A stretch of DNA of 64,000 nucleotides from Bacteroidales bacterium. GTDB taxonomy: Bacteria; Bacteroidota; Bacteroidia; Bacteroidales; F082. The DNA is taken from assembly GCA_017965765.1 (NCBI GenBank), contig JAGCPJ010000074.1:2272-66271 (forward strand), given 5' to 3'. This document shows, in pieces, positions 33,114 to 52,732 of the stretch. Within the stretch, counting starts at the first letter, position 1. Each line of letters begins with the position of its first letter. The position numbers were made by a program, and so were the translations under genes. Below the pieces are notes generated by a model. It saw only the letters and a list, made by a program, of their open reading frames with translations, did no database searches and was not told the origin of the DNA.

Positions 33114-34463
33114 TTATCTTACAAATCCGTTGGGTTCCATATCCACGCGATAACTGTATTCGGCATTGTCCCAAAGCGATTGCTCCAAAGAAATGCCTTT
33201 TTCCTTGGCTTGACGTTGCACGCTCTCCAGCCATTCGGGTGATTCCTTGATGCGCTGGATGTTCTTCTCGATCTCGGCATTGCGGAACGCAAGGTAGAGG
33301 CTGTCGGCCGCGTCGTATTGTTCCGAGGGTTTGTAACGGAAAACATTGTCGTAGCCGCTCAGATAACGCTCAATGAAACCGTATGGCCAAAGATGGTTGG
33401 TGGCCTCTGTGCAAAGAAGTAGTACAAAATCCTGATTTTCAATTTCTTGCTTGTAATCAACGGCTTCCACGTTTTGGATGGGCGAACGCTCGGGATAGAT
33501 GGTTTTGTTGTAGAACCAGAAGCCGCCATCGGAAAACAAGTGCTGAGGGAGCGCGATATTCCACGCATAGACGGTCCACCAATAAGAGTCGGAAATGGCC
33601 AACACCTTGGGTTTGTAGCCTTCCGTAAAGTGGAACACGGGCTGGTCAATGGTGTTGCGGGGTAACGGCAGCAGCAGGTTCATCATCTTGTATAAGTCGT
33701 CGTCCTGGTTCATCAGGAAAGTGGTGTCGAAGGCATCGATGACGGCATGGGCTTGGACCTGTCCCGTAATGCTTTCCATATAACGCACCAGCGAATCTAC
33801 AGCCAAGGAAGCCGTATAGGCCGTCCAGTGTGCACTCAGATTGCAATAGAACGGGTGGAGCTCGCGGTTTTTAAATGATATGAAGTATTGGTTGAAATCT
33901 ATCATCTCAACGTTTTGTGCTTCAAACGCTTTCAGGTATTCTTTATAATTATTGGTCTCCCGACCGTTTTTATAGTATTTTTCAGGAATCAGTTCGGGAT
34001 AATAGGAGGCCTTGCCTAGGGTGAAGACGGGCAGCAGGGTGATGCCTTTGGTGTGGAGCATCTCCTGGATGAGCTTGAGTTTTCGGGTGTTGTCTTGAAT
34101 GGCCTTGTCGCCGATATAGGTCTCGCCCGTATAGCTGATGATATACGACTCCTCGATAAAGGTAAAGTCGTCCTTGCCTTTCACGGGACCGATGGCAGAG
34201 ACCTTGCCAAAGGCAGAATATAGCAGCTGGTTGTTCAGGCGGATCATGGTGTTCCTAAACCCGGAGTGCTCTGTACACCAGGTCATCAGCGAGTCTTGCA
34301 CGGTCTCTTTCATCAGGGTCTTCAGGGTGATCTTGGGTAGGGGTGTCTCCACAAAAGCACCGTCCAAGGGCTTCTCCTTCACAACATGGAAGATGCCTTG
34401 CAGCATGGGCAGGAAGAGCACCAGCAGCAGCAACAGAAACCATATTTTCTTGAACGTTTTCAT
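33114..34463 (-). CDS. AlgJ/AlgX-like permuted-SGNH O-acyltransferase-family protein (type B)
   Basis: 449 aa with signal anchor MKTFKKIWFLLLLLVLFLP. A His block SAHW is followed ~85 aa later by ISDSYWW. The C-terminal module is PEWLESVQRQAKEKGISLEQSLWDNAEY. The ATG overlaps the upstream MBOAT stop (TGATG). Confidence 0.65.
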   Translation of the reverse strand: MKTFKKIWFLLLLLVLFLPMLQGIFHVVKEKPLDGAFVETPLPKITLKTLMKETVQDSLMTWCTEHSGFRNTMIRLNNQLLYSAFGKVSAIGPVKGKDDFTFIEESYIISYTGETYIGDKAIQDNTRKLKLIQEMLHTKGITLLPVFTLGKASYYPELIPEKYYKNGRETNNYKEYLKAFEAQNVEMIDFNQYFISFKNRELHPFYCNLSAHWTAYTASLAVDSLVRYMESITGQVQAHAVIDAFDTTFLMNQDDDLYKMMNLLLPLPRNTIDQPVFHFTEGYKPKVLAISDSYWWTVYAWNIALPQHLFSDGGFWFYNKTIYPERSPIQNVEAVDYKQEIENQDFVLLLCTEATNHLWPYGFIERYLSGYDNVFRYKPSEQYDAADSLYLAFRNAEIEKNIQRIKESPEWLESVQRQAKEKGISLEQSLWDNAEYSYRVDMEPNGFVR

Positions 34464-35953
34464 CAGAACCTGAAGTATATGAAGGGGTTGAAACTACCTT
34501 TAAGGATGAACGAAGCGGAGAGCAAGAGGAGGACAAGCATCAGCAAGCCGAGGAGAAGGCAACGGGGAGTGGAAAGTTTAAAGTTTAAAGTGGAAAGTTT
34601 ATCTAATTTCGACCGCAGGGTGGCACTGGGAACCAAACCGATGAAGGAGAAGATGGCGGCGATGATCAGGGTGAAGACAAATTGGCTGTTGACAAAAAGG
34701 GCCGGTGTGCTCCCATTGGCGCCAAACATGGCCCCTACGTAATGCACGGCGTAGCCGATGGTGTCGGAGCGGAACAGCACCCAGCCGATCATCACAATCA
34801 CGAACGTGAGGGGAACGGAAAACGGAGAACGGAAAGTGGAAAATTTTCCACTTTCCGTTCTCCGTTTTCCGTTTAATAGCTTATCCAAACAAATGAACAA
34901 CCCATGGTACGCGCCCCAAGCCACGAAAGTCCAGGCTGCGCCGTGCCAGAGACCGGAGAGGAAGAACACAATCCAAAGGTTGAGATAGGTCCTGCGAATC
35001 CCTTTTCTGTTGCCTCCCAAGGGGATATAGAGGTAGTCCATCATCCAGCGACCCAAAGTGATGTGCCAGCGTTTCCAAAACTCGGTGACGCTCCGACTGA
35101 TGTAGGGGTTATTGAAGTTCTCGGGGAACTTGAATCCAATCATCCTTCCAATGCCGATGGCCATGTCGCTGTAACCGGCGAAGTCGAAATAGATCTGGAA
35201 GGTGTAGGCGAGGATCCCCAGCCAGGCCGTGCTGGTGCCGATCTGCTGGGCGGGTAACGCAAACACTTGATCGGCATATTCCGCCAAGATATTGGCTATC
35301 AGCATCTTCTTTGATAAACCCAGGACAAAGCGGTAGAATCCCAAAATCCTGTTGTCCGTGGTCTCGTTGGCACTGCGGTCGGTGATCTGGTCGGCAATCT
35401 CGTTGTAACGCACGATGGGACCTGCAATCAACTGCGGGAAAAGCATGATGTACAACGCATAATCGGCGATGTTGTTCAGGGGTTTCGCCGTCCCACGATA
35501 GACATCGATGCTATAGCTCATCTTCTGGAAGGTGAAGAAGGAGATCCCAATGGGAAGGACAACCTTGGTCCAATGGATGGAATGGGCCCCAAAGACCCCA
35601 AGTAGCGCATTGAAGTTCTCAATGAAGAAGTTAGCGTATTTGAAATAGGCGAGGAGTCCAATATTCAATAGAATGGATAGCACCAAAAACGTTTTCCGTT
35701 CTCCGTTTTCCGTTTTACCTCCCATTCGGTCGGTGAGCCCTTCGGGGTTCCGTTTCCCCACTTCCCTCACCAAGAAGTAGTCGATGAGGATGGAAAGCAG
35801 CAGGATCAACAGGAACCTGGGCGAGCCGAAGCCATAGAACAGCAGGCTGAAGAACAACGCTACCGCGTTTTTGAGGCGGCGTCCTACGAGAAGATAGACC
35901 GCCAGGAACACAGGCAGGAAGTAGAAGAGGAATATGCTGCTGCTGAATACCAT
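34463..35953 (-). CDS. MBOAT-family membrane O-acyltransferase (AlgI/DltB-like), paralog 1
   Basis: Start set at MVFSSSIFLFYFLP, as in the three paralogs (the track extends to 35998). Motifs present are FWKRWHITLG and the catalytic-His block LSGLWHGAAW. It carries three in-frame repeat insertions. Confidence 0.85.
   Translation of the reverse strand: MVFSSSIFLFYFLPVFLAVYLLVGRRLKNAVALFFSLLFYGFGSPRFLLILLLSILIDYFLVREVGKRNPEGLTDRMGGKTENGERKTFLVLSILLNIGLLAYFKYANFFIENFNALLGVFGAHSIHWTKVVLPIGISFFTFQKMSYSIDVYRGTAKPLNNIADYALYIMLFPQLIAGPIVRYNEIADQITDRSANETTDNRILGFYRFVLGLSKKMLIANILAEYADQVFALPAQQIGTSTAWLGILAYTFQIYFDFAGYSDMAIGIGRMIGFKFPENFNNPYISRSVTEFWKRWHITLGRWMMDYLYIPLGGNRKGIRRTYLNLWIVFFLSGLWHGAAWTFVAWGAYHGLFICLDKLLNGKRRTESGKFSTFRSPFSVPLTFVIVMIGWVLFRSDTIGYAVHYVGAMFGANGSTPALFVNSQFVFTLIIAAIFSFIGLVPSATLRSKLDKLSTLNFKLSTPRCLLLGLLMLVLLLLSASFILKGSFNPFIYFRF
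34569..34603 (+). repeat. heptamer array GTGGAAA/GTTTAAA x5 inside CDS
   Basis: gtggaaa gtttaaa gtttaaa gtggaaa gtttatc. It encodes DKLSTLNFKLST in MBOAT-1. Confidence 0.85.
34814..34873. repeat. GGARAAC heptamer element, perfect 30+30 nt palindrome inside CDS
   Basis: aacggaaaacggagaacggaaagtggaaaa|ttttccactttccgttctccgttttccgtt. All 30 positions pair. It is 60 nt (20 codons) and encodes NGKRRTESGKFSTFRSPFSV. Confidence 0.97.
35690..35755 (-). repeat. composite element: reverse heptamer arm + 40-nt module B (truncated form) inside CDS
   Basis: cgttttccgttctccgttttccgtttt-acctcccattcggtcggtgagcccttcggggtt-ccgttt. It encodes KRNPEGLTDRMGGKTENGERKT on the minus strand. Confidence 0.95.
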
Positions 35954-35958
35954 CGGTC

Positions 35959-37974
35959 TTAAGGATTGTCGTGTTGTTGTCTGTTGTTCTTGATCCATTC
36001 CACGTCATGGGCAATCGTCACCAAGAAGGGCTTTTTGTTGCTCAGGGCTTTTTCCTTGATGCTTTTCAGGGACTTCTGGCTGATCCAAAAACCATGTTCA
36101 ATGAGGTAGTTCTCATACAGGGTCTTGAGTCTTTCGGGAGTGCACGACGCTTCGTTTTCCCTGTTTTGATACACCCAGAGTACATCGTCACGGAAGGCTT
36201 TGTCCAGGCTGACTTGCTTGTCGCGGGCTTTCTTCCGCAAGGTCTCAAGCGCGCTTTCGGTACCCATGCGTTGCATGATGTCGCTGAAGATGCAAGCCCG
36301 TTGCATCAGCGTGTCGTTCTCAAAGGCGTTGTGGCTGATGAGGCTGTCGATGATGGCCAGCGCCAAAGGTCTCAGCTCTTTTCGGCTCCCTTGGCTTTCG
36401 GGCCTCCTCCGCAAGCTGTCGAGGGTCATTTCCACCCAATGGTCGATATAGTCGTAAGGGGTGAAGAGCACGTTATTCTGGATGAGGGGTCTGCCGTTGA
36501 TGAGGTTTCCACTCTCGATCTCGAAGACCTTGTCGAGGTTGAGCGAGTCGTGCTTGGCCTTGCATTCCATCAGGAACGACCAGTCCTTGTTGTTCCGGAT
36601 TGCCCGTTCTGCAAGCAGCTGTCTCAGCTTGGGATTGCGACAGGTGGGCACCTCGGTCCCTCGCAACTCCTCGAAGAGTTCAGGGTTGCGTATCAACTTG
36701 ACGTCCGCATAGTTCAGGTAGTTTTTTCGCTCCCATCCGTCCACAGGATGGTAAAGGGCCAGGCTGTCGGCCACCTCTTGTCTTTTCTCTTGAAAGCGCT
36801 CATCGCTGATGCACAGCCCGATCAAGGTCTTGCCAAAGAACTGGAAACCGTCGTTGTACAGCTGTGGTGCGTTCTTGAAATAGATGACATAGTCGTGGCA
36901 CAGCACTTCCCTCAGGTAGTTGATCTGGTTCAGGTCGAGGATGGTCTGTTCTTCGTTGGTGTAGTATTGGGCGTCATAGAAGATGAGATCGCGGCGGCTG
37001 AATACCTTTTCGAAGGGCACCCGCGGGGTCATGTACCAGAAGTAGGAGGTGCCGATGAACAATGCGGAGGGATACACGGTGTTACTGTCGGCCTCGATGG
37101 TGACAGGGATCTCCCATAAAGGCATGTGTTGCTTGGGTATCTTGACGATGTTCAGCAGTTCTGCCAGATCCCGGTCTTTGCTGTTGACATCTTTCTCGGC
37201 CACTTCGTACGGGGTTCCCATGACGATGTCGGCCAGCTGGTCGCCTTTCAAAGTCTCCATGAACCGGAACAGCGAATCGGTTGCCAGCACCGCTCCAGAG
37301 GCCCAGTGACTGCCTTTTTCGTAGAACAGGGTGAAGGGGTAGTCGTGACGGAGGGTCTGGAACCATGGGGTCATGTTGATATGCGGGAAGCCGGCCTTGG
37401 TGAGTTGTTCGTTGTAATACACGTCAGCGTGGAAGGTGGTGTCGATAAACCGTTGGGGTCGCAGGTGTTCGGGATAGATGTAGCTCTTCACGGGCAAGGT
37501 GAAGGTCATCAGCTCCACGCCGTATTCTTTGAGGATCGCCCGGATCTTCACCAGCGACCGGGTCTCGATGGCGAGGTTTTGCTCAAACTCCTCGTTGCTG
37601 AGGTTGTGCCGTTGGTTCATCCTGCCGAAGTACTGCACGGTTCCGTCTTTTTGGTACAACCACCCGTCCTTGCCCACGGTAATCTCGCCGCTGAAGGTCT
37701 TGTGATAAAAGTCATAGACATACTGGTTGTACATGCGGATGACGGGGATCCTGAACCCGAAGTTCTCGCTGATGTAGGTCTCGGTCTGTCGCTGCCACTG
37801 GCCGTTTTTATAGTTTTCGAAGCTGAGCTCGGGTTTTGGAGCTTTGTGATACACACCGCTTAGCCTTTGGAATTTGAACAACTTGAAGTGCTCTTCCATC
37901 ATCGGGAGGAAGAGGAAGAGCATCAGGATGCCGAACAGGATAGGATAGAGCAGCGTGCGTTTCTTCATGGCCAA
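35959..37974 (-). CDS. AlgJ/AlgX-like permuted-SGNH protein, long form with triplicated C-terminal module (type B)
   Basis: 671 aa with signal anchor. The AlgJ-like N-region is ENFGFRIPVIRMYNQYVYDF...VGKDGWLYQKD. The His block is KGSHW. The Ser block is IGTSYFW (GTS rather than GDS). Three C-terminal helical modules are present. Confidence 0.65.
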   Translation of the reverse strand: MAMKKRTLLYPILFGILMLFLFLPMMEEHFKLFKFQRLSGVYHKAPKPELSFENYKNGQWQRQTETYISENFGFRIPVIRMYNQYVYDFYHKTFSGEITVGKDGWLYQKDGTVQYFGRMNQRHNLSNEEFEQNLAIETRSLVKIRAILKEYGVELMTFTLPVKSYIYPEHLRPQRFIDTTFHADVYYNEQLTKAGFPHINMTPWFQTLRHDYPFTLFYEKGSHWASGAVLATDSLFRFMETLKGDQLADIVMGTPYEVAEKDVNSKDRDLAELLNIVKIPKQHMPLWEIPVTIEADSNTVYPSALFIGTSYFWYMTPRVPFEKVFSRRDLIFYDAQYYTNEEQTILDLNQINYLREVLCHDYVIYFKNAPQLYNDGFQFFGKTLIGLCISDERFQEKRQEVADSLALYHPVDGWERKNYLNYADVKLIRNPELFEELRGTEVPTCRNPKLRQLLAERAIRNNKDWSFLMECKAKHDSLNLDKVFEIESGNLINGRPLIQNNVLFTPYDYIDHWVEMTLDSLRRRPESQGSRKELRPLALAIIDSLISHNAFENDTLMQRACIFSDIMQRMGTESALETLRKKARDKQVSLDKAFRDDVLWVYQNRENEASCTPERLKTLYENYLIEHGFWISQKSLKSIKEKALSNKKPFLVTIAHDVEWIKNNRQQHDNP

Positions 37975-39309
37975 TCAGTTGTTTGCTTTCTTTTTTCTTT
38001 CGGTGATTACATACATGGCATTGCGGCGCAGGTTTTCTTCTGTGCTCAAACCTCGTTCCTTGGCCTGGCGTTCAACGGCTTGCATCCATCCAGGATTGTC
38101 TGAGATTTCTTGCATCACCAGTCGAAGTGTTGTCTCTAGGTCGTCAGGATCTCTGGCGTACAGTTCCATGGCGCTTTCGGGGAATCCGTACATGTATTGG
38201 TAAAAACAAGGCGCCGTGAAGACGGCCATGACGATGTCGGCTTCTTTGAGGACCTTGGGTGCTTCAATCAGGTATTTCACCTCTCTGCCGTTGTAGGCTT
38301 GGTTGGAAGAGGCGATGTCGCGGTTGTATTTCCAGTAATCCCACTGGTGGAAGGCCTCGACGAAACAGGAGTTTCGCAGTTGGATGAAATAACTGTCGCC
38401 GATGACGAGCAGGTTGGGATGGTCCTTGCCAACCGTATCGGTCAAAGCGAAAACAGGTCGTGGCAGGGCGGGTTTCTCTATCGGGAAGAGCAGGTTCAAC
38501 TGGCCTTCTAACTCGCCGTCTTGGACGGAGTAGTCGGAGGTGGGGTTGGGGTCAAGGTATTCGATGGACGGCAGCTGGTAGCCTGTCAAGTCCTCCAGTG
38601 TTCGCAACAGGGTGTCGGCGACCATGGGGATGCAGGCCTCGGACCAATGGGTGCCCGTCCGGGTATAGAGCGGGTAGGGGAAGTGGTCCTTGAGGGACTT
38701 GAAGTAGTTGAGGAAGTCGATGTGCGGGATGCCGTTTTCCTTGAAGAGTTGGATATAATATTCTTCCAGCGAGAAGTCGGCGATTTGCCGCTGGTAGGTG
38801 GTGGGCATGAATTCGGGATAGACCGCGGTCTTGGAGGGGGCGAAGACGAAGAGGAACTCGGTGCCGTGCCGATGCAGGGTGTCGATGAGCCGCAAGGTGG
38901 CTTCCACGTTGCTCCGGGCTTCGGCTTTGGCGGCCTCCACATCGGGATAAAACACCAAGAGGCGCTCTCCGGTGATCTCTTCCAGATACATCTTCAGGTA
39001 GAGTTCCTTGTTCTTGCCGCACACCACGTTGTCGTTGGTGATCTTGTTGAAGCAGGTGTAGGCGATCTGGTTATAGTTCCGGATCAGGAATTCCCGAAAT
39101 CCGGTGTTTTCCTTGGCATAGTCGGTGAGATAGTCTTGGAAGGTGCCGTCGTAGTAGGTGCTGAAACGCAGCGGCACGGTGTCGAGTTCATCGGTATAGC
39201 CGTGGAGTGGCTTGGTGTTCACGGCATGGGTGAGACCTTGCAGCAGCACGGCCAGCAGCATCGCAAGGATGCAGGCAAATTGTATCGTGTAGCAGACAGG
39301 TCTTTTCAT
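37975..39309 (-). CDS. AlgJ/AlgX-like permuted-SGNH protein (type A)
   Basis: 444 aa with signal anchor. Blocks DYAKENTGFREFLIRNYNQ, TGTHW and VIGDSYF are present. The C-terminal module is NPGWMQAVERQAKERGLSTEENLRRNAMYV. Confidence 0.65.
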   Translation of the reverse strand: MKRPVCYTIQFACILAMLLAVLLQGLTHAVNTKPLHGYTDELDTVPLRFSTYYDGTFQDYLTDYAKENTGFREFLIRNYNQIAYTCFNKITNDNVVCGKNKELYLKMYLEEITGERLLVFYPDVEAAKAEARSNVEATLRLIDTLHRHGTEFLFVFAPSKTAVYPEFMPTTYQRQIADFSLEEYYIQLFKENGIPHIDFLNYFKSLKDHFPYPLYTRTGTHWSEACIPMVADTLLRTLEDLTGYQLPSIEYLDPNPTSDYSVQDGELEGQLNLLFPIEKPALPRPVFALTDTVGKDHPNLLVIGDSYFIQLRNSCFVEAFHQWDYWKYNRDIASSNQAYNGREVKYLIEAPKVLKEADIVMAVFTAPCFYQYMYGFPESAMELYARDPDDLETTLRLVMQEISDNPGWMQAVERQAKERGLSTEENLRRNAMYVITERKKKANN

Positions 39310-39321
39310 GGTTGTCGTGGG

Positions 39322-40827
39322 TTAGAATCGGAAGTAGATGAAGGGATTGAAGTTGGAGACACACAAGGAGCCGGCAGAAAGGATGAGGAGCACTAGTGTG
39401 ATGGCAAACATAATCCAGGAGCGTCTTGGGGTGTAATGGTCGGCGAAGACGAGTTCCTGAAGTCGCAGGCCGCCTTTGGTCAGGGTAAGGAAGGAGAAGA
39501 CCAGTGCCAGGGCAAGGACAAACCAATATTGCGAGTCGGCACGCACAAAGTCTCCACTTCTAAAACTGAACATGGCTTGGTAGAAGTCTCCGATAGGGGC
39601 GATACCTTCCACACGGAACAACACCCAGCCGATCAGTACGATGAGGAAAGTGAAGGGAACGGAAAGCGGAGAACGGAGAACGGAGAATTTTCCGTTTTCC
39701 GTTTTACCTCCCATTCGGTCGGTGAGCCCTTTGGGGTTCCGTTTTCCGTTCAATAGCTTGTCCAAGCAAATGAACAACCCATGGTAGGCGCCCCATAGGA
39801 CAAAATTCCAGCTGGCGCCGTGCCACAATCCCGAAAGCAGGAAGCAGAGCCACAGGTTGAAATACATCCTGCCTTTGCCCTTGCGGTTGCCGCCCAAGGG
39901 GATATACAAATAGTTCATGATGAAGTTACCCAAAGTGATATGCCATCGTTTCCAGAACTCAGTGATGTTGTGACTGGTATAGGGGTTGTTAAAGTTCTCG
40001 GGAAAACGGAAGCCCATCATCTTACCGAGACCGATGGCCATGTCGCTGTACCCTGAGAAGTCGAAATAGATCTGCATGGTGTAGGAAAGGGCTGCCAGCC
40101 AGGCGGTTCCCGATGATAAGTCACCATAGTTCATGGCAAAGACCTGGTCGGCGTAAACGGCCAAGGTGTTGGCGATAAGCACTTTCTTTGCCAAGCCGAT
40201 CACAAAACGGTAAAAGCCCAACACACGGTCTTCCATGGTGCTGTCCCGTTCCACCAGTTGGGCTGCCACACTGTTGTAGTTGACGATGGGGCCTGCGATA
40301 AGCTGGGGAAACATCATGATATACAGTACATAGTCGGTCAGCTTTTGGCTGGGAGGAGTCACGCCGCGATAGACGTCAAGGGTATAGGTGATGGATTGGA
40401 AGGTGAAGAACGAGATGCCTATGGGCAAGGCAACTTTCATCCAAGATACAGGCTCATGATGGAACCAACCCAAGATTCCATTGAGATTTTCCATCATGAA
40501 ATTGGCGTACTTGAAATAGAGCAGCAACCCCAGCGAAAGGATGATGGAGATGGCACAAAGAATAGTTTTCCACTTTCCGTTTTCCGTTTTACCTCCCATT
40601 CGGTCGGTGAGCCCTTCGGGGTTCCGTTTCGCCATCGCCCTCACCACATAGTAGTTGACGATGCACTCTCCGACCAAAAGGAAGACAAAGTCGGGTGCGC
40701 CGTAAGCGTAAAACACGATGGAAAACAAAAGCAGGGTATAGTTCCTGAACTTCCGTGGTGTGAGGAAATAGGCCACCAGGAAGATGGGCAGGAAGAAGAA
40801 GAGGAAGATGTTGCTGCTGAATACCAT
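39322..40827 (-). CDS. MBOAT-family membrane O-acyltransferase, paralog 2
   Basis: 501 aa. N-terminus MVFSSNIFLFFFLP, with FWKRWHITLG and LSGLWHGASW. It has two in-frame composite repeat insertions. Confidence 0.85.
   Translation of the reverse strand: MVFSSNIFLFFFLPIFLVAYFLTPRKFRNYTLLLFSIVFYAYGAPDFVFLLVGECIVNYYVVRAMAKRNPEGLTDRMGGKTENGKWKTILCAISIILSLGLLLYFKYANFMMENLNGILGWFHHEPVSWMKVALPIGISFFTFQSITYTLDVYRGVTPPSQKLTDYVLYIMMFPQLIAGPIVNYNSVAAQLVERDSTMEDRVLGFYRFVIGLAKKVLIANTLAVYADQVFAMNYGDLSSGTAWLAALSYTMQIYFDFSGYSDMAIGLGKMMGFRFPENFNNPYTSHNITEFWKRWHITLGNFIMNYLYIPLGGNRKGKGRMYFNLWLCFLLSGLWHGASWNFVLWGAYHGLFICLDKLLNGKRNPKGLTDRMGGKTENGKFSVLRSPLSVPFTFLIVLIGWVLFRVEGIAPIGDFYQAMFSFRSGDFVRADSQYWFVLALALVFSFLTLTKGGLRLQELVFADHYTPRRSWIMFAITLVLLILSAGSLCVSNFNPFIYFRF
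39656..39750 (-). repeat. full composite element (~95 nt): forward arm + reverse arm + module B + reverse arm, inside CDS
   Basis: The forward arm is ggaacggaaagcggagaacggagaacggagaa. The reverse arm is ttttccgttttccgtttt. Module B is acctcccattcggtcggtgagccctttggggtt. The terminal reverse arm is ccgttttccgtt. Together they encode NGKRNPKGLTDRMGGKTENGKFSVLRSPLSVP. Confidence 0.95.
40566..40629 (-). repeat. composite element (truncated): reverse arm + module B, inside CDS
   Basis: ttttccactttccgttttccgtttt-acctcccattcggtcggtgagcccttcggggtt-ccgttt. It encodes KRNPEGLTDRMGGKTENGKWKT. Confidence 0.95.
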
Positions 40828-40837
40828 GTTTGTTGTA

Positions 40838-42544
40838 TTAGAATAATTCTCCGTTGATAAGTTTTTCTTGGATGACCCACCGTGCGTCTTCTTGCATGAC
40901 GGTTTCGTAATCCTTGCCTTTATCCTTGGCTTTGCGTTCTAGGAAAAGGGTTTGCTTGGGGTCGTTTCGCCACAGGTTGATGAGTTTCTCAACCTCATAT
41001 TGTATGATGGTAGCCGTATCGGCTTGGATTTCATCCTTAAGCAACGGCCGTCCGAACAAGACATTCTCGGCCTCTTTGTCCAAGAGTTCGGCAAAAGACC
41101 GTTCGGTTTTTGAGGCAGCCATTTCCAAGGTCGTTTTCCACAGTTTGTCATTGGCAATGGTGTTGGCTTGCTGGGCCAGGGCAATGGCTTTGGTGTTGCG
41201 GATGGTCGGCATGGCTTCGCCACGTAATCCAGGGATCAGTTCTGGATTGCTTTTTAAGAGATTAATGGCATATTGGCGCAAGGAATCAGGTGATATCTCG
41301 CAATAATGTTGTGCGTAATACTTCGCTTTGAAAGCACTATCGTTGCCCAAGCTATCCATCACCCAGGGGATCTGTGCGTCAAAAAGGCTGTCGGTGACAC
41401 AAAGCTGGATCAAGGCATCTTCCACAAAGTCGTATGAAGCCCTACTCCACTGATAACCAGATGAATACCAAACAACATAATCGGCATTCAAAAGGGAACG
41501 CAACCGATTGATTTCGGTGACAGGATGCCGTTCTTTGTCGAAACCGACAAAAGCCGCTTTGTTATAGAACCAGATTTCAACATCGGCAAGGATTTCTTTC
41601 CAAGGCATGTAGGTCTCTAGGTCCCAAATGAAGGAATCACCAACGAAAAGCACTTTGGGTTTGTGACAACCTTCATCGCAGTCAATGGTGATGTCGGCGC
41701 GATATTTCGGGGAATCGTTACCTATTGGGAAGAGGAGATTGAGCGTTTGTTCGTCGTTTTCGAGATATTCCGTGTCTAGTGCTATCAACTGATTGACATG
41801 GATGTCGGGGATGCCAAAGCCGTTGAGGCTGTCCATGTAGCTGAACAGGCTGTCGAAGCCATAGACGGCAGCATAGCGCCAATGCGTGTCGCGTTTTGGG
41901 AACAAGGGAAACGAAGCCGTGTCTTTCATGGCCAAATACCACTTGGTCATCTCCACATGTGGGAAACCAATCGCCGTCATCAGCGAATCGTAATAGGCCG
42001 CTGTATGGATGACATTGCCTTTGGGTGGTTCGTGGTAGGGTAGGTATTCGGAATAGATTTCCGCTTTGTCGGGTGCCATAAAACATAGGAACTCAACGCC
42101 ATAGTCTTTCAAAACATAACGTAGTTTGTTCATCATCCTGACATTCTTTTGCGCCCAGATTCTGGCATTGTCGTAGGTTTTGTAGAAATGGAGCGGCTCA
42201 ATGCCATAATACTCCCGAAAAGCTTCTGAATAAAACAGATAGCCGTCTTTTCCCGGGGTGATAAAGTGGCAATGGGTTTTGTTGAAACAGCTGTAGGAAA
42301 CCTGGTTGTAAAGCCGGATGGCCCATTCTCGGAACCCAGTGTTTTCCTTGGCATAGTCGGTGAGATAGTCCTGGAACGTGCCGTCGTAATAGGTGCTGAA
42401 GTTCAGCGGTACGGTGTCGAGTTCATCGGTGTAGCCGGCAAGCGGCTTGGTGTTCACGGCATGGGTGAGACCTTGCAGCAGCACGGCGAGCAGCACCACT
42501 AGGATGCTGGCAAATTGTATCGTGTAGCGGACAGGTCTTTTCAT
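40838..42544 (-). CDS. AlgJ/AlgX-like permuted-SGNH protein (type B body with type A N-terminus)
   Basis: 568 aa. It is the only paralog with the canonical His block RDTHW. The Ser block is FVGDSFIW. It has two C-terminal helical modules. The first ~70 aa are nearly identical to those of the 37975..39309 product. Confidence 0.65.
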   Translation of the reverse strand: MKRPVRYTIQFASILVVLLAVLLQGLTHAVNTKPLAGYTDELDTVPLNFSTYYDGTFQDYLTDYAKENTGFREWAIRLYNQVSYSCFNKTHCHFITPGKDGYLFYSEAFREYYGIEPLHFYKTYDNARIWAQKNVRMMNKLRYVLKDYGVEFLCFMAPDKAEIYSEYLPYHEPPKGNVIHTAAYYDSLMTAIGFPHVEMTKWYLAMKDTASFPLFPKRDTHWRYAAVYGFDSLFSYMDSLNGFGIPDIHVNQLIALDTEYLENDEQTLNLLFPIGNDSPKYRADITIDCDEGCHKPKVLFVGDSFIWDLETYMPWKEILADVEIWFYNKAAFVGFDKERHPVTEINRLRSLLNADYVVWYSSGYQWSRASYDFVEDALIQLCVTDSLFDAQIPWVMDSLGNDSAFKAKYYAQHYCEISPDSLRQYAINLLKSNPELIPGLRGEAMPTIRNTKAIALAQQANTIANDKLWKTTLEMAASKTERSFAELLDKEAENVLFGRPLLKDEIQADTATIIQYEVEKLINLWRNDPKQTLFLERKAKDKGKDYETVMQEDARWVIQEKLINGELF

Positions 42545-42556
42545 GGTCGTTGTAGG

Positions 42557-44110
42557 TTAGAATCGGAAGTAGATGAAGGGACTGAAGCCCGTGGCGTTGA
42601 GGGCGCCCAAGCAGAAGACGAAGGCGCAGAGGCTGACCACGAAGGCTAAGATATGCTGTCTTTTGTTGTATTCGGTGAAATAGACCTTGTCCTGGACTTT
42701 GAGACCGAACTTCGAGAGGGTGAAGAAGGAGAAGAAGGCGGCGATGAGCATGGTCACATAGAGATGGGGGTTCTCGCCGAAGTGGAAGGGGACGAAGTCA
42801 AAGGCAAAGAGCCGCTTGATGAAGAGCCAGGAGAGGTCGATGCGCTCTATGCGGAAGAAGCAACGGGTGAGCACGATGAGGCAGAAGGTGAAGAAGACGG
42901 ACGGGATGCGGCCCATCCGCTCATTGAACTTCTTAAGGAAGAGCTTGTCGGCACAGATGAAGATGCCTTGCAACGCGCCATACACCACGAAGTTCCACGC
43001 GGCACCATGCCAGAGACCGGAGACGAGGAAACAGAACCATAGGTTGAAGTACTTTCGGGCCTCGGTCTTGACGCGGCTGCCTCCCAAGGGGAAGTATAGG
43101 TAATTCGTGATGAATACGCAGAAGGTCTGGTGCCAGCGACGCCAGAACTCGGAGATGGTCGTGGAGACATAAGGGTTGTCGAAGTTTTCGGGGAAACGGA
43201 AACCCATCATGCGGCCCAAGCCGATGGCCATGTCGCTGTAACCCGCAAAGTCGAAATAGATCTGGAAGGTGAAGGCCAGGATGGTGATCCAGGCCGTGGT
43301 GGAGTCGATGGCGGCGATCTTGTTGGCGATGTCGGCCAACTGGGCGGAGGTCAACACATCGTAGTTCGAGGGACCCAATACCTGGTCCACCTGGAAACCA
43401 ATGACATCGGCGATGAGCACCTTCTTGCACAAACCTAACACAAAACGGTAAAAACCGTGCAGCCGGTCGGTGTAAAGCGACTCTCGGTTGCGGATCTGGT
43501 CGGCGATATCGCAATAGCGGACGATGGGACCGGCGATGAGCTGCGGAAACATCACGATGTAAAGCATGTAGTCGCTCAACCGCTCCATCGGCTTGTTGAC
43601 GCCTCGGTAGGTGTCCAAGGTGTAGGTCACGCTCTGGAAAGAGAAGAACGAAATGCCAATGGGCAACAAGATCTTGGTCCAAGAGAGGCTCTTGAAGCCC
43701 GCCCAACCGAGGATGGTGTTCAGGTTCTGCATCGTAAAGTTGCCGTATTTGAAGTAAAACAGCAACCCAATGCTGATGGCAATGGAGAGGCCGCAAAGCA
43801 ACTTTGATAACGGAAAACGGAACCCCGAAGGGCTCACCGACCGAATGGGAGGTAAAACGGAAAACGGAAAATTTTCCGTTCTCAGTTTTCCGTTTTCCTT
43901 TTCTTTTGCCTTCATCATCCAACGCACTAGATAAAAGTTGGCGATGGTGGAAAGGATCAAGTGGATGATGAACTCCGGGGCGCCGTAGGCGTAAAACAAC
44001 AAGGAGGCGAACAGCAACACGTAATTCCGGATCTTTCGCGGCGTCAGGAAATAGACCGCAAAGAAAATCGGCATGAAGTACAATAGAAATACGTTGCTGC
44101 TGAATACCAT
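42557..44110 (-). CDS. MBOAT-family membrane O-acyltransferase, paralog 3
   Basis: 517 aa. N-terminus MVFSSNVFLLYFMP, with FWRRWHQTF and VSGLWHGAAW. It has one composite insertion, in the opposite orientation to paralogs 1 and 2. Confidence 0.85.
   Translation of the reverse strand: MVFSSNVFLLYFMPIFFAVYFLTPRKIRNYVLLFASLLFYAYGAPEFIIHLILSTIANFYLVRWMMKAKEKENGKLRTENFPFSVLPPIRSVSPSGFRFPLSKLLCGLSIAISIGLLFYFKYGNFTMQNLNTILGWAGFKSLSWTKILLPIGISFFSFQSVTYTLDTYRGVNKPMERLSDYMLYIVMFPQLIAGPIVRYCDIADQIRNRESLYTDRLHGFYRFVLGLCKKVLIADVIGFQVDQVLGPSNYDVLTSAQLADIANKIAAIDSTTAWITILAFTFQIYFDFAGYSDMAIGLGRMMGFRFPENFDNPYVSTTISEFWRRWHQTFCVFITNYLYFPLGGSRVKTEARKYFNLWFCFLVSGLWHGAAWNFVVYGALQGIFICADKLFLKKFNERMGRIPSVFFTFCLIVLTRCFFRIERIDLSWLFIKRLFAFDFVPFHFGENPHLYVTMLIAAFFSFFTLSKFGLKVQDKVYFTEYNKRQHILAFVVSLCAFVFCLGALNATGFSPFIYFRF
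43809..43898 (+). repeat. full composite element (~90 nt), forward orientation, inside CDS
   Basis: The leading forward arm is aacggaaaacgg. Module B is aaccccgaagggctcaccgaccgaatgggaggt. A second forward arm is aaaacggaaaacggaaaa. The reverse arm is ttttccgttctcagttttccgttttcc. This is the reverse complement of the architecture at 39656-39750. It encodes KENGKLRTENFPFSVLPPIRSVSPSGFRFP on the minus strand. Confidence 0.95.
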
Positions 44111-44130
44111 GTCGGTGATTAATTAATCTG

Positions 44131-44138
44131 CAAAAATA
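44131..44138 (-). promoter_or_regulatory. -7 box TAnnTTTG (TATTTTTG), internal to the array
   Basis: The plus strand reads caaaaata. It lies in the only sizeable gap (40 nt) of the array, ~20 nt upstream of the MBOAT-3 ATG. Confidence 0.4.
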
Positions 44139-44150
44139 ACAATTCTATCG

Positions 44151-45509
44151 TTATGGTTGTTGACTCTCGTAGGCTTCCTGTTTTTTCTTGTCTGCATCAA
44201 GCACATAGATGGCATTGTTGCGAAGGTTTTCCTCTACGCTGACGTTCCGCTCGGAAGCCTGTTCCACGATACGCTCATACCACTGTGGATTATTCTTTAT
44301 CTCATTGATTTTCAGTTGAATAGTTTCTTCTTCGCTTAAAGATCCTTTGGCAAATAGCCGGAAGGCGGTCTGCTCAAAGCCCCAGAGGTATTCGTAGATG
44401 TAGGCGGAGGTGACGATGGCGACCACGATGTCGGTTTCTTCCAGCATCTCGTAGGCCTTGGCATAATAGGGCACTTTCTTCCAGTTGAGGTATTCTCTGC
44501 TGGAGAGGATGTTGTCGTTGTATTGCCAGAAATCCCAGCGGTTGAAGGCGTCGGCGAAACAGGAGTTGACCAGCTGGATGCTGTAGCTGTCTCCGACAAT
44601 CAGCAGGTTAGGCTTGTCCTTCCCGAGGGTGTCCGTCAAAGTGAAACTGGGTCTCGACACGGCGGGTTTCTTCACGGGGAAATACAGGTTCATCAAGGCC
44701 TCGAGCTCGCCGTCCTGTTCCGAATAGTCGGTGCTGTAGTTCTCGTCCAGAACCTGGATGTCGGGGAATCGGTAGGGTGTCATGGCTTCCAGTTTTCTCA
44801 AGAGGGTGTCGGCCACAAGGGGAATGGTGGCTTCGGACCAATGGGAACCGTACCGGGTGTAAAGCGGGTAGGGGAAGGTGTCCCGCAATGTCTTGAAGTA
44901 GTGGGTGAAGTCGATATGGTTGATGCCGTGTGCCTTGAACTGTTCGATATAGTATTGGGAGAGCAGGAAGTCGCAGTGTTCCAAGCTGTCGCGATAGGCG
45001 TCGGGCAGATTCTCGGGATAGGTGAGCACCTTGGAAGGGGCGAAGACGAAGAGAAATTGTGTGCCGTGACGCTGTAGGGTGTCGATGAGCCGCAGGGTCT
45101 CCTGGACGTGCTCTCGGGCTACCGCTTTGGCGCTGTCTGCGGTCTTGAAGTATTCTTTGACGCGTTTTCCGGTGACGTCGTCGAGGTACATCTTCATGTA
45201 CAGCTCGTTGTTTTTGCCGCATACCACGTTGTCATTGGTGATCTTGTTGAAGCAGAGATAGCAGCATTGGTTGTAGTTTCGGATGAAAAACTCCCGGAAG
45301 CCTGTATGCACACGGGCATAGTCGGTGAGGTAATCCTGATAGCTGCCGTCGAGCCAAGTGTCCACCTTCAGCTTCACGGGCCTTTTGGCGTCATAGAAAC
45401 CCACCAAAGGCTTTGCGGGCACCCAATGCGTCAGTCCTTGGACGAAGATGGCCACCAAGAACCCCATGAGGCAAAGGAAGGGAATCGTAAAATGGGGGCG
45501 GTTTTTCAT
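44151..45509 (-). CDS. AlgJ/AlgX-like permuted-SGNH protein (type A)
   Basis: 452 aa and a close paralog of 37975..39309. Blocks DYARVHTGFREFFIRNYNQ, YGSHW and IVGDSYS are present. The C-terminal module is NPQWYERIVEQASERNVSVEENLRNNAIYV. Confidence 0.65.
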   Translation of the reverse strand: MKNRPHFTIPFLCLMGFLVAIFVQGLTHWVPAKPLVGFYDAKRPVKLKVDTWLDGSYQDYLTDYARVHTGFREFFIRNYNQCCYLCFNKITNDNVVCGKNNELYMKMYLDDVTGKRVKEYFKTADSAKAVAREHVQETLRLIDTLQRHGTQFLFVFAPSKVLTYPENLPDAYRDSLEHCDFLLSQYYIEQFKAHGINHIDFTHYFKTLRDTFPYPLYTRYGSHWSEATIPLVADTLLRKLEAMTPYRFPDIQVLDENYSTDYSEQDGELEALMNLYFPVKKPAVSRPSFTLTDTLGKDKPNLLIVGDSYSIQLVNSCFADAFNRWDFWQYNDNILSSREYLNWKKVPYYAKAYEMLEETDIVVAIVTSAYIYEYLWGFEQTAFRLFAKGSLSEEETIQLKINEIKNNPQWYERIVEQASERNVSVEENLRNNAIYVLDADKKKQEAYESQQP

Positions 45510-45518
45510 GGCGTCGGC

Positions 45519-47048
45519 TTAGAATCTGAAATAGATGAAGGGGCTGAAACGGGAAGCATTCAAGGCGGCGATGCAGAAGAGGAAGGCTGCCACGCTGAGG
45601 ATCCAAACAAAGATGTGCTGCCTGTCGGTGAATGCGTGGTTATACACCCAGTCCTGCAGTTTCCTGCCTGCTTTGGTGAGGGTGATGAAAGAAAATATGG
45701 CGGCCAAGAGCAGGGTGACGTAGAACCTGGGATTGAGGCTGAAAGGTAACGGCGCAAACTGGAAGGCAAACATCCTGCCGATGAAAGTCCAAGCCAAGTC
45801 GAGCTTCTCTATACGGAAGACCATCCACGTCACCGTGACGAAGAGAAAGGTGAGGAGAACGGAAAACGGAGAACGGAGAACGGAGAGTTTTCCGTTTTCC
45901 GTTCTCCGTTTTCCGTTGAATACCTTGTCCAAGCAGATGAAAAGCCCGTGCAAGGCGCCCCAAACCACGAAATTCCAGCTGGCACCATGCCAGAGGCCAG
46001 AGAGCAGGAAGCAGATCCAGAGGTTGAGGTAGGTGCGTGCCTTGCCTTTGCGGTTGCCGCCTAAGGGGAGGTAGAGGTAGTTCTTGATGAAGGCGCCCAA
46101 AGTGATGTGCCAGCGGCGCCAGAACTCCGTGATCGACTTGGAGACGTACGGGTTGTTGAAGTTCTCCGGGAATTTGAACCCCATAATACGGCCCAAGCCG
46201 ATGGCCATGTCGGAATAGCCCGCGAAATCGAAGTAGATCTGGAAGGTATAGGCCAGTGCCACCATCCAGGCGGTGGTGGAGTCAAGCATGGCAATGCGTT
46301 CCGTGAGGGTTGCCAGACGCTCTGCGCTGATCGCCGATAGGTTAGCGGGACCCAAGATGGCATCGACTTCCATCCCGATGACATCGGCGATGAGGATCTT
46401 CTTGCAAAGGCCGATGACAAAACGGTAGAACCCTTGCAGACGGTCTGCGTACCCTGACTCGCGATGGCGGATCTGGTCGGCTACGTCGCAATAGCGGACG
46501 ATGGGACCCGCGATGAGCTGGGGAAACATCGTGATGTAGAGCATGTAGTCGCTGAGCTTTTTCATGGGCTGGTTCACCCCCCTGTAAGTGTCCAAGGTGT
46601 AGGTGACACTTTGGAACGAGAAGAACGAAATGCCAATGGGAAGGAGAATCTTGGAGAACGGAGAACGGAGAACGGAAAACTGAGAATAACCGAGACGGCC
46701 TAAAAGCCAAAATAGGTTTTCCGTGAAGAAGTTCGCGTACTTGTAGAAGACCAACAATCCGATGGGAATGGCAATGGACAGCCCACAAAGGATCTTGGAG
46801 AATGGGGAGTTTTCCGTTTTCCGTATTCCGTTTTCCGTTTCCTTTGCTGCTACCATGGCTTTCACCAAGTAGAAATTGGCAATGGTGGAGACAACAAGCT
46901 GGATCAGGAAATCGGGCGCACCCCAGGCGTAGAACAGCAAGGAAGCGAAGAGCAAGGCGTAGTTTCTGGCCTTCCTGGGCAACAGAAAGTACAACAGGAA
47001 GAATCCTGGCATGAAGTACAGTAGAAATACATTGCTGCTAAATACCAT
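45519..47048 (-). CDS. MBOAT-family membrane O-acyltransferase, paralog 4
   Basis: 509 aa. N-terminus MVFSSNVFLLYFMP, with FWRRWHITLG and LSGLWHGASW. It has three in-frame heptamer insertions. Confidence 0.85.
   Translation of the reverse strand: MVFSSNVFLLYFMPGFFLLYFLLPRKARNYALLFASLLFYAWGAPDFLIQLVVSTIANFYLVKAMVAAKETENGIRKTENSPFSKILCGLSIAIPIGLLVFYKYANFFTENLFWLLGRLGYSQFSVLRSPFSKILLPIGISFFSFQSVTYTLDTYRGVNQPMKKLSDYMLYITMFPQLIAGPIVRYCDVADQIRHRESGYADRLQGFYRFVIGLCKKILIADVIGMEVDAILGPANLSAISAERLATLTERIAMLDSTTAWMVALAYTFQIYFDFAGYSDMAIGLGRIMGFKFPENFNNPYVSKSITEFWRRWHITLGAFIKNYLYLPLGGNRKGKARTYLNLWICFLLSGLWHGASWNFVVWGALHGLFICLDKVFNGKRRTENGKLSVLRSPFSVLLTFLFVTVTWMVFRIEKLDLAWTFIGRMFAFQFAPLPFSLNPRFYVTLLLAAIFSFITLTKAGRKLQDWVYNHAFTDRQHIFVWILSVAAFLFCIAALNASRFSPFIYFRF
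45855..45917. repeat. GGARAAC heptamer palindromic element inside CDS (27/30 arm matches)
   Basis: gagaacggaaaacggagaacggagaacggagag|ttttccgttttccgttctccgttttccgtt. It encodes NGKRRTENGKLSVLRSPFSV. Confidence 0.95.
46653..46687 (+). repeat. GGARAAC heptamer array, forward single arm, inside CDS
   Basis: ggagaac ggagaac ggagaac ggaaaac tgagaat. It encodes SQFSVLRSPFS on the minus strand. Confidence 0.9.
46810..46842 (-). repeat. GGARAAC heptamer array, reverse single arm, inside CDS
   Basis: ttttccgttttccgtattccgttttccgtttcc. It encodes KETENGIRKTENSP on the minus strand. Confidence 0.9.
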
Positions 47049-47050
47049 GG

Positions 47051-48457
47051 CTATTCTTTTTGTTGTTCTTTGAGGTATTGCATCACTGCGCTGGACCTGC
47101 GGGTGGGAATGCTGTCTTTCAAGGCGGGAAGGAAGATGTGGGGCGAATGGGTCACCACATACTCAGCTTCGTGGACCACCGTGGTGTCAAGGGGAATCTG
47201 ATACTCTTCCGCACGCCGTTGCAAGGCCGCTAACCACGCCTTGTTTTGCTTGATGTTTTCAACCAGATCTGTTTTGATTTGCCGTAGTTCCTCATCGTCG
47301 TAACACAGTCTCGGCAACAGTCGGGTGGAGAAGCCGTTGCTCATCTTGTAGAGTTGCGTCGTGCTGTAGGCGAGCATCACAAAGTCGGCATCCAGCACTT
47401 CTTTGACGAGGTCGAGTTCGGAGGTGTTGTGGTAGGGCTCTTCAAAATAGACGGTGCTGTTGTAGTACCAGTAGGGTGTTGCGCCGAAGATTTCCTTGAA
47501 CGGGGTGTGGTTGAGGATGTTCCAGTAGAAGGAGTCGCCAATGGTGATGAGGACGGGACGCTTGGCCGTGGGGTCTTCAATCACCTCGGTCTTGGCAAAA
47601 TAGTTCGGTGCGGTCTTCAAAGGCCGGATGAGGTTCATCAGTTGCTCCAAGTCGTTGTCGGGATCCACCGTCTGGACATATTTCTCTCCGATGCTGAAAT
47701 TCAACAGGTTGACATGGCCCAATGCCTCCATGTAGCGTACCAGGCTGTCGGCGACATACATGGCGGCCAGGTTGCTCCAGTGGGTTCCGGTCTGGGGAAA
47801 GAGCGGGAAGTCAGCGGTGTCTTTCATCTGGAGGAACCACTGTCCTACATCGATGTAGTTGACGCCCATTTCGGAGAACTTCTTGCCGTAGTAGTCGTAT
47901 GCGGTGATCTCTTTTTCACGGAAGTATTTCGTGTTTTCAGGCAGGTGTTCCGGATAGATGGCTTCCTTCCCGGGCAGCAGCAGCACAAAGAGATGGGTGC
48001 CGTAGGCTTCCAGGATATGTTGGATCTGGTAAAGCATGAGCGCTTCGGTGTCGAACTGTTTGGCCATGTCGATTGCATCTTTCGAATAGCGATGGGCATT
48101 GCCTTGGTAATATTCTTCCACACTCATCGCCTCGTAGTACCATTGGTCGTCGCTGATGTAGATGCCTTTGTTTTTCAGGTTCGAGTAGTGGAACAGGTCC
48201 CATTGGGTCTGATTGTATAGCCTGGTCAGCGGTTCCCGGAAACCGTAATGGTTCTGGAGATGGCGCTCCACGCCTTGCTGAAAACGTTGGTTTTTCCAAT
48301 GCTCGTACGTCAATGTCGGGATAGGCTGCTCAGCGACGACACCTTTCAAGCTGCGAAACTTGATGATGTGGAGTTGCTGCAAGGGCAAGGCGATCACCAC
48401 CACGGCGGTGAGGATGAATAATATGCGTTTGGTACGTGTATTCATGCGCTTTATCAT
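47051..48457 (-). CDS. AlgJ/AlgX-like permuted-SGNH protein (type B), first gene of the array
   Basis: 468 aa. The AlgJ-like N-region is LQNHYGFREPLTRLYNQTQW, with TGTHW and TIGDSFYW. The C-terminal module is NKAWLAALQRRAEEYQIPLDTTVVHEAEYV. An alternative start at 48445 (MNTRTKRILF) is suggested by the promoter box at 48459-48466. Confidence 0.65.
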   Translation of the reverse strand: MIKRMNTRTKRILFILTAVVVIALPLQQLHIIKFRSLKGVVAEQPIPTLTYEHWKNQRFQQGVERHLQNHYGFREPLTRLYNQTQWDLFHYSNLKNKGIYISDDQWYYEAMSVEEYYQGNAHRYSKDAIDMAKQFDTEALMLYQIQHILEAYGTHLFVLLLPGKEAIYPEHLPENTKYFREKEITAYDYYGKKFSEMGVNYIDVGQWFLQMKDTADFPLFPQTGTHWSNLAAMYVADSLVRYMEALGHVNLLNFSIGEKYVQTVDPDNDLEQLMNLIRPLKTAPNYFAKTEVIEDPTAKRPVLITIGDSFYWNILNHTPFKEIFGATPYWYYNSTVYFEEPYHNTSELDLVKEVLDADFVMLAYSTTQLYKMSNGFSTRLLPRLCYDDEELRQIKTDLVENIKQNKAWLAALQRRAEEYQIPLDTTVVHEAEYVVTHSPHIFLPALKDSIPTRRSSAVMQYLKEQQKE

Positions 48458-52548: not shown

Positions 52549-52573
52549 GACGGGTTGGTTTTATGTTTACTAG

Positions 52574-52646: not shown

Positions 52647-52654
52647 ATAAGTTG

Positions 52655-52727: not shown

Positions 52728-52732
52728 AAGTG

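Follow-up and report, generated by a model that had tools for sequence, protein, structure and literature searches.

In a 64,000-nt stretch of Bacteroidales DNA (positions 2,272 to 66,271 of contig JAGCPJ010000074.1; below, the window), a repeat was found inside four neighbouring genes of the MBOAT family. It consists of tandem 7-nt units (GGAAAAC and its variants), often forming two inverted arms, with an optional 33-nt cassette at a fixed phase. Relatives at approximately 5% divergence already differ in these parts, always precisely: cassettes and 7-nt units are gained or lost, duplicated or swapped, both within and between genes. We lean towards regarding the whole as a non-autonomous modular palindromic repeat of a rumen/gut Bacteroidales lineage, which would spread via its repeat arms without an element-encoded enzyme.

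An earlier note on this DNA had described a 40-nt module, AACCCCGAAGGGCTCACCGACCGAATGGGAGGTAAAACGG, in three reverse copies and one forward copy. A search of the window recovered four matches, at the positions and in the orientations that the note had given, and none were found in 100 shuffled sequences:

35710-35749, minus strand: 40-mer copy 1, no mismatches
39699-39738, minus strand: 40-mer copy 2, one mismatch (G>A in the sense of the element)
40584-40623, minus strand: 40-mer copy 3, no mismatches
43821-43860, plus strand: 40-mer copy 4, no mismatches

All four lie within minus-strand open reading frames (ORFs) of the MBOAT family (one in M1, two in M2, one in M3 and none in M4). These genes are tandem paralogs with 49-59% protein identity in the alignment, and each is followed by a gene of the ALGX family (Pfam):

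34463-35998, minus strand: M1, 511 aa, with a conserved MVFSS start at 35956 (Pfam MBOAT via its ortholog in the related contig L142)
39322-40827, minus strand: M2, 501 aa, with two copies (Pfam MBOAT)
42557-44110, minus strand: M3, 517 aa, or 492 aa in L142 (Pfam MBOAT)
45519-47048, minus strand: M4, with heptamer arrays and no cassette (Pfam MBOAT)

In total, 4 MBOAT genes are interleaved with 6 ALGX-family genes on the minus strand at 33114-48457, a putative tandemly amplified polysaccharide O-acetylation cluster, and MBOAT/ALGX pairs are plausible modifiers of surface polysaccharides. The contig L006, from a related species, apparently lacks the M4 copy.

In the alignment of the paralogs, the loop copies of M1, M2 and M3 fall in one shared loop, which in M1 is located between the second and third transmembrane helices (TM2 and TM3), and the second M2 copy is located in the C-terminal loop. 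The peptides quoted in the earlier note are correct: the shared loop reads KRNPEGLTDRMGGKTENG in M1 and M2, and FPFSVLPPIRSVSPSGFRFP in M3, where the copy is flipped relative to the other two and the frame stays open. The reported near-identity against diverged flanks was also confirmed, since perfect identity spans 41-56 nt around the copies and the 150-nt coding flanks of the loop site are only 55-64% identical between paralogs.

The 40-nt module is a real repeat, but the unit that is present or absent is shorter. It is a 33-nt cassette, AACCCCGAAGGGCTCACCGACCGAATGGGAGGT, and the 40-mer ends in 7 nt that belong to the array as one of its heptamers. Its bounds were obtained by aligning cassette-bearing elements with cassette-less arrays (the M4 loop and the C-terminal loops of M1 and M4), which differ by a clean 33-nt block, AACCCC...GGGAGGT, between ...AACGG and AAAACGG.... 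The insertion phase is constant (GG^AAAAC within GGAAAAC arrays), with an AA dinucleotide at both cassette borders. Two small hairpins form in the cassette: H1 (CCC-CGAA-GGG; in relatives, GGC-GNAA-GCC) and H2 (ACC-GA-CC-loop-GG-GA-GGU). Its copies in the window are:

35717-35749, minus strand: cassette copy 1, in the M1 loop between TM2 and TM3, read as NPEGLTDRMGG
39706-39738, minus strand: cassette copy 2, in the M2 C-terminal loop, with the H1 variant CCCCAAAGGG
40591-40623, minus strand: cassette copy 3, in the M2 loop, position and frame as in copy 1
43821-43853, plus strand: cassette copy 4, in the M3 loop, antisense to the gene and read as LPPIRSVSPSGF (H1 43823-43832, H2 43836-43853)

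Two of these four copies (2 and 4) belong to full composites and two (1 and 3) have one purine arm only:

35691-35759, minus strand: one-armed heptamer array with copy 1, GGGGAAACGG-cassette-AAAACGG AAAACGG AGAACGG AAAAC, without a right arm
40565-40632, minus strand: one-armed heptamer array with copy 3, purine arm only
39656-39750, minus strand: full composite hairpin with copy 2, left GGAAAAC arm with the cassette and right GTTCTCC arm
43809-43898, plus strand: full composite hairpin with copy 4, orientation opposite to the gene

Full composites are ordered as a GGAAAAC arm, the cassette, further GGAAAAC units and an inverted GTTYTCC arm. Their predicted fold is a junction composed of an outer stem, H1, H2 and an inner long hairpin (for 39650-39756, -43.5 to -54.7 kcal/mol, z -5.6 to -6.5). 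The claim that the composite at 39656-39750 is the reverse complement of the architecture at 43809-43898 was borne out by 89% identity over 111 nt (43809-43919 against 39640-39750 on the opposite strand, compared through L137, a near-identical copy). The related idea of a module flipped between fixed arms had to be abandoned, as the M3 copy is the whole quasi-palindromic element on the other strand.

Approximately 19 GGAAAAC-type arrays are present in the window, 12 of them inside ORFs; the intergenic ones begin directly at the upstream stop codon. The arrays are free of stop codons in all six frames, the cassette in 4 of 6. Forms without a cassette include:

46809-46843, minus strand: cassette-less heptamer array at the homologous site of the M4 loop
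34810-34870, minus strand: heptamer hairpin without a cassette, in M1 at the homologue of the copy 2 site
45854-45914, minus strand: heptamer hairpin without a cassette, in M4 at the homologue of the copy 2 site
49791-49844, plus strand: heptamer hairpin without a cassette, in the U32 peptidase gene (two tandem cassettes at the orthologous site of L006)

The turnover of these parts is best seen in L142, which covers the whole cluster and is 94-96% identical to the window at the nucleotide level over 17.7 kb. All four cassette sites differ between the two:

M1 loop: one cassette in the window, two tandem cassettes in L142 (+33 nt)
M2 loop: one cassette in the window, exactly those 33 nt missing in L142/P0008
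M2 C-terminal loop: cassette in the window, a GTCATTGCGAGGAGCGGAGCGACGTGGCAATCC-type module instead in L142
M3 loop: full composite in the window, the minimal palindrome AACGGAAAACGGCCGTTTTC in L142 (-75 nt)

All 14 indel events in these 17.7 kb fall in heptamer arrays or cassettes, and the 75-nt M3 difference, which parts two aligned blocks, likewise lies in array/cassette sequence. Among these events are +21 nt in a GGAGTKA array of the U32 gene and new TTGAGAG arrays in L142. Most M2 orthologs at 74-80% amino acid identity are 471 aa long and have neither array nor cassette; in the ortholog at 92% identity the array is present and the cassette is exactly absent. A second, CGTC-tag-like cassette family, GTCATTGCGAGGAGCGGAGCGACGTGGCAATCCAGTACTAC, occupies the same slot of the heptamer hairpin. 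Such a cassette replaces H1+H2 in frame in L142 (reverse strand, ~8823-8885, corresponding to window 39667-39737), giving the peptide SGLSSTGLPRRSAPRNDSYRI, and is elsewhere fused to H1+H2 (L008, about 3174; L024).

Among five conspecific contigs, which are 99.5-99.9% identical to the window, the M2-loop and M3 copies are unchanged and have the same orientation, which gives no support to the inversion proposed in the earlier note. No orientation polymorphism was seen at these two copies in the window and the five conspecific assemblies, which are consensus sequences that hide minority states. Besides a ragged alignment end, the sole indel in approximately 20 kb is the loss of one 7-nt unit from the M4 loop array in L140 (TTCCGTA at about 46819), and the resulting frameshift splits M4 into ORFs of 411 and 113 aa. 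This loss is a candidate for slipped-strand on/off variation of a surface-acetylation gene. At position 46825, the window has A and four of the five conspecific contigs have T, which gives a perfect GTTTTCC unit.

The cassette is also found far from MBOAT genes. Three metagenome-assembled genomes (MAGs) of uncultured rumen Bacteroidales (RUI549, RUG14679 and Tb.RUG.487) contain its exact 23-nt core at 13 sites, distributed over 12 loci, with 3-6 copies per MAG and always embedded in heptamer units (GGAAAAC in one genome, GGAAAGT in the others). Five of the sites are in intergenic spacers between co-directional genes and others are in frame in unrelated ORFs, among them ORFs whose N-terminal sequences we take to be adenylosuccinate synthetase-like (purA) and Vsr-like. 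A U32 peptidase ORF is a further in-frame host. In L006, which is syntenic with window 44.2-53.2 kb at 70-88% nucleotide identity, the U32 ortholog (77% amino acid identity) carries two tandem cassettes read in two frames, as NPEGLTDRMGGK and then TPEGSPTEWEVK; a two-frame reading is also found in M1 of L142. Since tandem cassettes are read in different frames, the encoded peptide is a by-product. The same U32 gene of the window (48510-50264) holds another heptamer hairpin, KGEWKTENGERKTSHGQEPFSVLRAPLSV, at 50032-50091. The L006 ortholog has there approximately 60 extra residues of an unrelated linker, and the element seems to stand in place of a part of the gene rather than being a simple insertion. 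Searches of phage and plasmid collections with the composite and an H2 hairpin gave chance matches only, and four matches in viral contigs look coding or incidental.

The proposal that the repeat does not follow vertical descent is well supported: it occupies unrelated loci in other species, most M2 orthologs are without it and the four L142 sites differ. The contrary pattern named in the earlier note, i.e. copies in MBOAT genes only, in fixed orientation and with a divergence matching that of the flanks, is not what was found, and non-vertical dynamics are therefore supported. The argument for recent mobility from near-identity is sound in so far as exact gains and losses are seen in a relative at ~95% identity, but identity alone is no proof of it. 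In other species, where the syntenic genes share just 70-88% identity, the 33-mer is found without a single change, and thus constraint or continual homogenisation also acts.

The arrays that flank the cassette have period 7 in 17 of 53 copies and never a period of 4-6 or 8-11 (two period-3 matches occur besides). The heptamers themselves vary by lineage (AAAACGG, AAAGTGG, AAAAGTG, AATTCTC, AACTATT etc.), with at least 8 unrelated units. Period 7 is also dominant among the tandem repeats of the window, again with unrelated units. Other examples there are 14634-14660 (AGCTGAG), 14686-14713 (TTGAATC), 49113-49150 (GGAGTKA) and 58837-58859 (ATTCGGA), and several period-7 arrays of the window are inside ORFs as multiples of 21 nt. 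Separately, two tandem DUF5618 paralogs (52126-53158) flank a tRNA pair on the minus strand (52574-52646 and 52655-52727), and a 96-nt repeat (52468-52563 and 53063-53158) is 91% identical.

H2 also occurs outside the cassette and is conserved widely. A metagenome scan with the pattern TCACCGACC-N3-4-GGGAGGTAA revealed at least 120 loci in freshwater, marine and gut samples. Matches of the type GGTGAAATCACCGACCCNAGGGAGGTAATGTAGG were excluded from the H2 set as coding false positives; their site is presumably a leuC/leuD-type gene junction. H2 is an imperfect hairpin of ~27 nt, UCA-CC-GA-CC-loop-GG-GA-GG-UAA, in which the 18 bases fixed by the query form the inner hairpin and, among the matches listed, the outer stem, outside the query, covaries. 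In that set 79.5% of the outer-stem cells are paired and 10 of 14 pairs change on both sides, a value reached by none of 500 shuffles and clearly above slid controls. In secondary H2 copies the inner pairs change compensatorily, with UCA, both GA steps and UAA fixed. H1 covaries as well (CCC-CGAA-GGG versus GGC-GNAA-GCC). Judged from its sequences, H2 is an old, structurally constrained hairpin.

Among the matches listed, a tRNA gene lies upstream on the same strand in 33 of the 61 non-gut H2-type loci whose upstream sequence is 350 nt or longer, and only one H2 copy is near a tRNA in any other arrangement. These loci represent, within the same listed matches, 10 anticodons, and an eleventh, tRNA-Ala, comes from a heptamer-flanked H1H2-type locus. 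The first H2 copy typically follows the tRNA after 139-161 nt or ~200 nt (overall, ~140-230 nt downstream). The interval usually contains, in this order, a terminator-like hairpin, a long hairpin (in 27 of 34 loci its apex is AGCUNGCU), a third hairpin and the tRNA trailer in an inverted copy. The trailer copy closes a four-way junction, which was clean in 4 of 6 single-sequence folds and is followed by a C-rich tract and then H2. Examples are L026 5900-6150, L076 3650-3860, L045 880-1480 and L061 4145-4560; the element is sometimes tandem, with units of 45, 50, 59, 118 or 128 nt. One locus adjoins a PorE-like gene of the type IX secretion system (T9SS), which points to Bacteroidota as at least some of the carriers. 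The loops include CUUG, in a co-occurring hairpin, and GNRA, in H1 variants.

Covariance models of Rfam identified two tRNAs only in the window at the gathering score, and below this threshold only microRNA-like hairpin matches on the heptamer palindromes; on nine metagenome loci they gave tRNAs and chance matches only. RNAalifold applied to the tRNA trailers found only two conserved islands, the variable stems being beyond the MAFFT alignment. No published description of these sequences, of intragenic palindromes of Bacteroidetes or of tRNA-downstream motifs was found in a literature search. Several known structures were considered and rejected. A K-turn or hammerhead core was dismissed by inspection (no 3-nt bulge and no CUGA/GAAA), and a Shine-Dalgarno (SD) role of GGGAGGU was dismissed as intergenic copies are at least 13-31 nt from start codons. 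We take the H2 5' arm GGAUCACC (in metagenome copies with the outer stem) to match the 8 nt with which the 3' tail of E. coli-type 16S rRNA begins, and the 3' arm to hold GGAGGU, and H2 would thus presumably resemble an anti-SD/SD duplex broken by tandem G.A pairs. On account of the tandem hairpin arrays near tRNA sites, the non-coding RNA arrays of UG27 reverse transcriptases (bioRxiv 10.64898/2026.09.22.753630) were considered too, and set aside: units there are ~150 nt, and no reverse-transcriptase gene was conspicuous among the listed downstream genes.

A tentative suggestion is that H2 (UCA-NN-GA-NN-loop-NN-GA-NN-UAA) may be the signature of an undescribed, widespread tRNA-trailing element, built of a tRNA, a terminator-like hairpin, a long hairpin with a AGCUUGCU apex, a third hairpin closed by the inverted tRNA-trailer copy, a C-rich tract and H2, and recognised by a conserved factor. 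In herbivore-gut Bacteroidales, H1+H2 might have become coupled to a process that makes or maintains period-7 arrays, and so have turned into a dispersed, ORF-colonising repeat.

As to how the repeat spreads, arrays on both sides of a cassette would provide short homology through which other copies could serve as donors in gene conversion or template switching, and the same arrays would allow replication slippage. Such homology-driven copying would explain why the phase is constant, why indels are exactly 33 nt and tandem duplications 47 nt long, and why the element is enriched in four tandem paralogs, which would already have borne arrays at homologous loops. Copies in ORFs would be kept only if the change in length is a multiple of three, free of stops and in a tolerant variable loop; they would survive because the arrays are stop-free in six frames and the cassette is open in four. 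The constancy of the cassette sequence may be due to the structural constraint on H2, which probably has its role on the 3' side of transcription units, either bound by some factor or at the level of RNA or single strands.

Several points weigh against this view. Homology-driven conversion is what we infer from the precision and phase of the indels, and the AA at both borders could equally be a 2-nt target duplication made by a transposase. The number of exact-core copies per MAG is low, unlike that of classical repetitive extragenic palindromes (REPs). The strict period of 7 across unrelated unit sequences is beyond slippage alone. Finally, the orientation counts, according to which gut-type H1+H2 copies between genes run in the direction of the upstream gene 23:2 (mostly 4-50 nt past its stop codon) and those in ORFs are 16 sense and 6 antisense, come from a naive ORF caller and include some orthologous duplicates.

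The first alternative to copying through the arms is mobility driven by an enzyme, the cassette with or without its arms being a substrate like a REP or a transposable element of the miniature inverted-repeat kind (MITE) for a transposase encoded in trans, e.g. RAYT or an IS200-type HUH enzyme which would recognise H2 as single-stranded DNA and insert at GG^AA. We regard this as unlikely, though several observations suit it. The presence or absence of exactly 33 nt, the constant phase and the AA borders are as expected, there is a strong strand bias, and the hairpin combines conserved mismatches (tandem G.A, C.A) with a covarying stem in the manner of HUH substrates. DNA mini-hairpins with a GAA or GNA loop closed by C-G have a very high stability. 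Intragenic REPs offer a precedent (PMC3733652). However, the GTAG/CGTC tag is absent from the cassette, its copy number is low, no transposase gene was found beside the copies in the loci inspected (including the gene tables of L137-L142), and the restriction of the cassette to arrays is equally explained by recombination.

Somewhat less probable still is a selected RNA element whose mobility would be secondary. On the 3' side of transcription units it could block exonucleases, be processed or bound by a protein, or terminate antisense transcription. The 23:2 excess of sense copies just past stop codons argues for it, as do the H2-type hairpins that trail tRNA genes on the same strand (33/61 against one otherwise, among the matches listed) and the GNRA and CUUG loops. 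The opposite strand of the cassette reads GAGCCC-UUCG-GGGUUC, a C(UUCG)G hairpin, followed by U-rich heptamers, and was flagged by a terminator scan. Selection against such a terminator-like structure in mRNAs would be a sufficient, if unproven, reason for the orientation bias, so that the bias need not reflect a function of the sense strand. Moreover, a canonical terminator hairpin precedes the element in the tRNA trailers, which makes co-transcription doubtful, and the copies in ORFs together with rapid loss between relatives indicate that individual copies are dispensable.

A programmed switch, in which the inverted heptamer arms invert the cassette or heptamer slippage phase-varies the MBOAT surface-acetylation genes, is very improbable. 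On the sequence, recombination between the outer arms would turn the M2 C-terminal into the M3 architecture with the length unchanged, the MBOAT/ALGX pairs plausibly modify surface polysaccharides, and one conspecific contig has a 7-nt loss that splits M4. This lone variant may be a dead allele or an assembly error, the assemblies being consensus sequences; orientation is constant in the window and all five conspecific assemblies, and the same elements are present in intergenic spacers as well as in housekeeping genes. Vertical inheritance of a functional peptide, kept by protein selection in the MBOAT loops, would account for the loop, frame and peptide shared by M1 and M2, but is effectively refuted by cassettes in unrelated genes and intergenic DNA, by their reading in two sense frames and one antisense frame and by their absence from most orthologs (exactly so from the 92%-identical one).

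A modular repeat spread via its arms would add a Bacteroidales case to the few known repeats that live in frame inside genes. The cluster is also an unusually clean natural experiment, since every indel between two ~95% identical genomes lies in these elements, and its 7-nt arrays are a candidate source of frameshift variation in surface-acetylation genes. For annotation, it should be kept in mind that ENGKRKT, FSVFRFP and NPEGLTDRMGGK in rumen MAG proteins are repeat-encoded and not domains. The conservation of H2, its covarying stem and its fixed place and strand behind tRNAs suggest an unrecognised structured RNA or single-stranded DNA element.

Among known repeat systems, Rickettsia palindromic elements (RPE) are said to have been described by Ogata et al. 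in 2000. They and the intragenic REPs compiled by Di Nocera et al. 2013 (PMC3733652) resemble the repeat described here in being short palindromes that many unrelated genes carry in frame, where tolerant regions gain 10-30 residues, with intergenic copies too and with presence or absence differing between relatives. As in RPE, the cassette is in frame in diverse ORFs that are not disrupted, and related genomes are without the insert. Homology to RPE-1 to RPE-8 is nevertheless unlikely, because phylum and sequence differ; there is no sequence similarity, the cassette has no GTAG/CGTC tag, and RPE is a unique palindrome, unlike the tandem 7-nt arms with an optional internal cassette seen here.

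With REPs mobilised by RAYT (TnpA-REP) the element shares an imperfect hairpin with conserved mismatches, strand asymmetry and a dispersed, tandem or clustered occurrence (a palindrome of ~27 nt, 13 exact-core sites in 3 MAGs and at least 120 metagenome loci). It differs in its low cassette copy number, in the lack of a RAYT gene beside the inspected copies and in having neither GTAG nor CGTC in the 33-nt cassette or the heptamer borders. A co-occurring module, GTCATTGCGAG..., has a CGTC-like end. By sequence, the element is outside the GTAG/CGTC REP superfamilies and the Rfam families. As for MITEs, inverted arms exist in the full composites, but these are tandem heptamers of variable length, 2 of the 4 copies are one-armed, the only candidate target duplication is the AA at the cassette borders, and no parent insertion sequence was found.

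It is general knowledge that BOX of Streptococcus pneumoniae (boxA-boxB(n)-boxC) and the bacterial interspersed mosaic elements (BIMEs) of E. coli have variable internal modules and stable predicted hairpins, are non-coding and sit in short spacers within and after operons, features in which they are like the element. They differ in being extragenic, with unique modules of 45-60 nt and no period-7 arrays, and we know of no module shared phylum-wide by either. Contingency loci (the phase-variable 4-7 nt repeats of Haemophilus and Neisseria), equally well known, are alike in placing non-triplet repeats in ORFs of surface-modifying enzymes, where a change by one unit frameshifts the gene (here, in 1 of 5 conspecific contigs). 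The arrays described here differ in being genome-wide, mostly in-frame multiples, often palindromic and present in housekeeping genes too. The novelty lies in the phylum, in arms built from period-7 arrays, in a cassette that is optional and exchangeable and in its link to a deeply conserved tRNA-trailing hairpin, and the tRNA-trailer element could itself be a new class.

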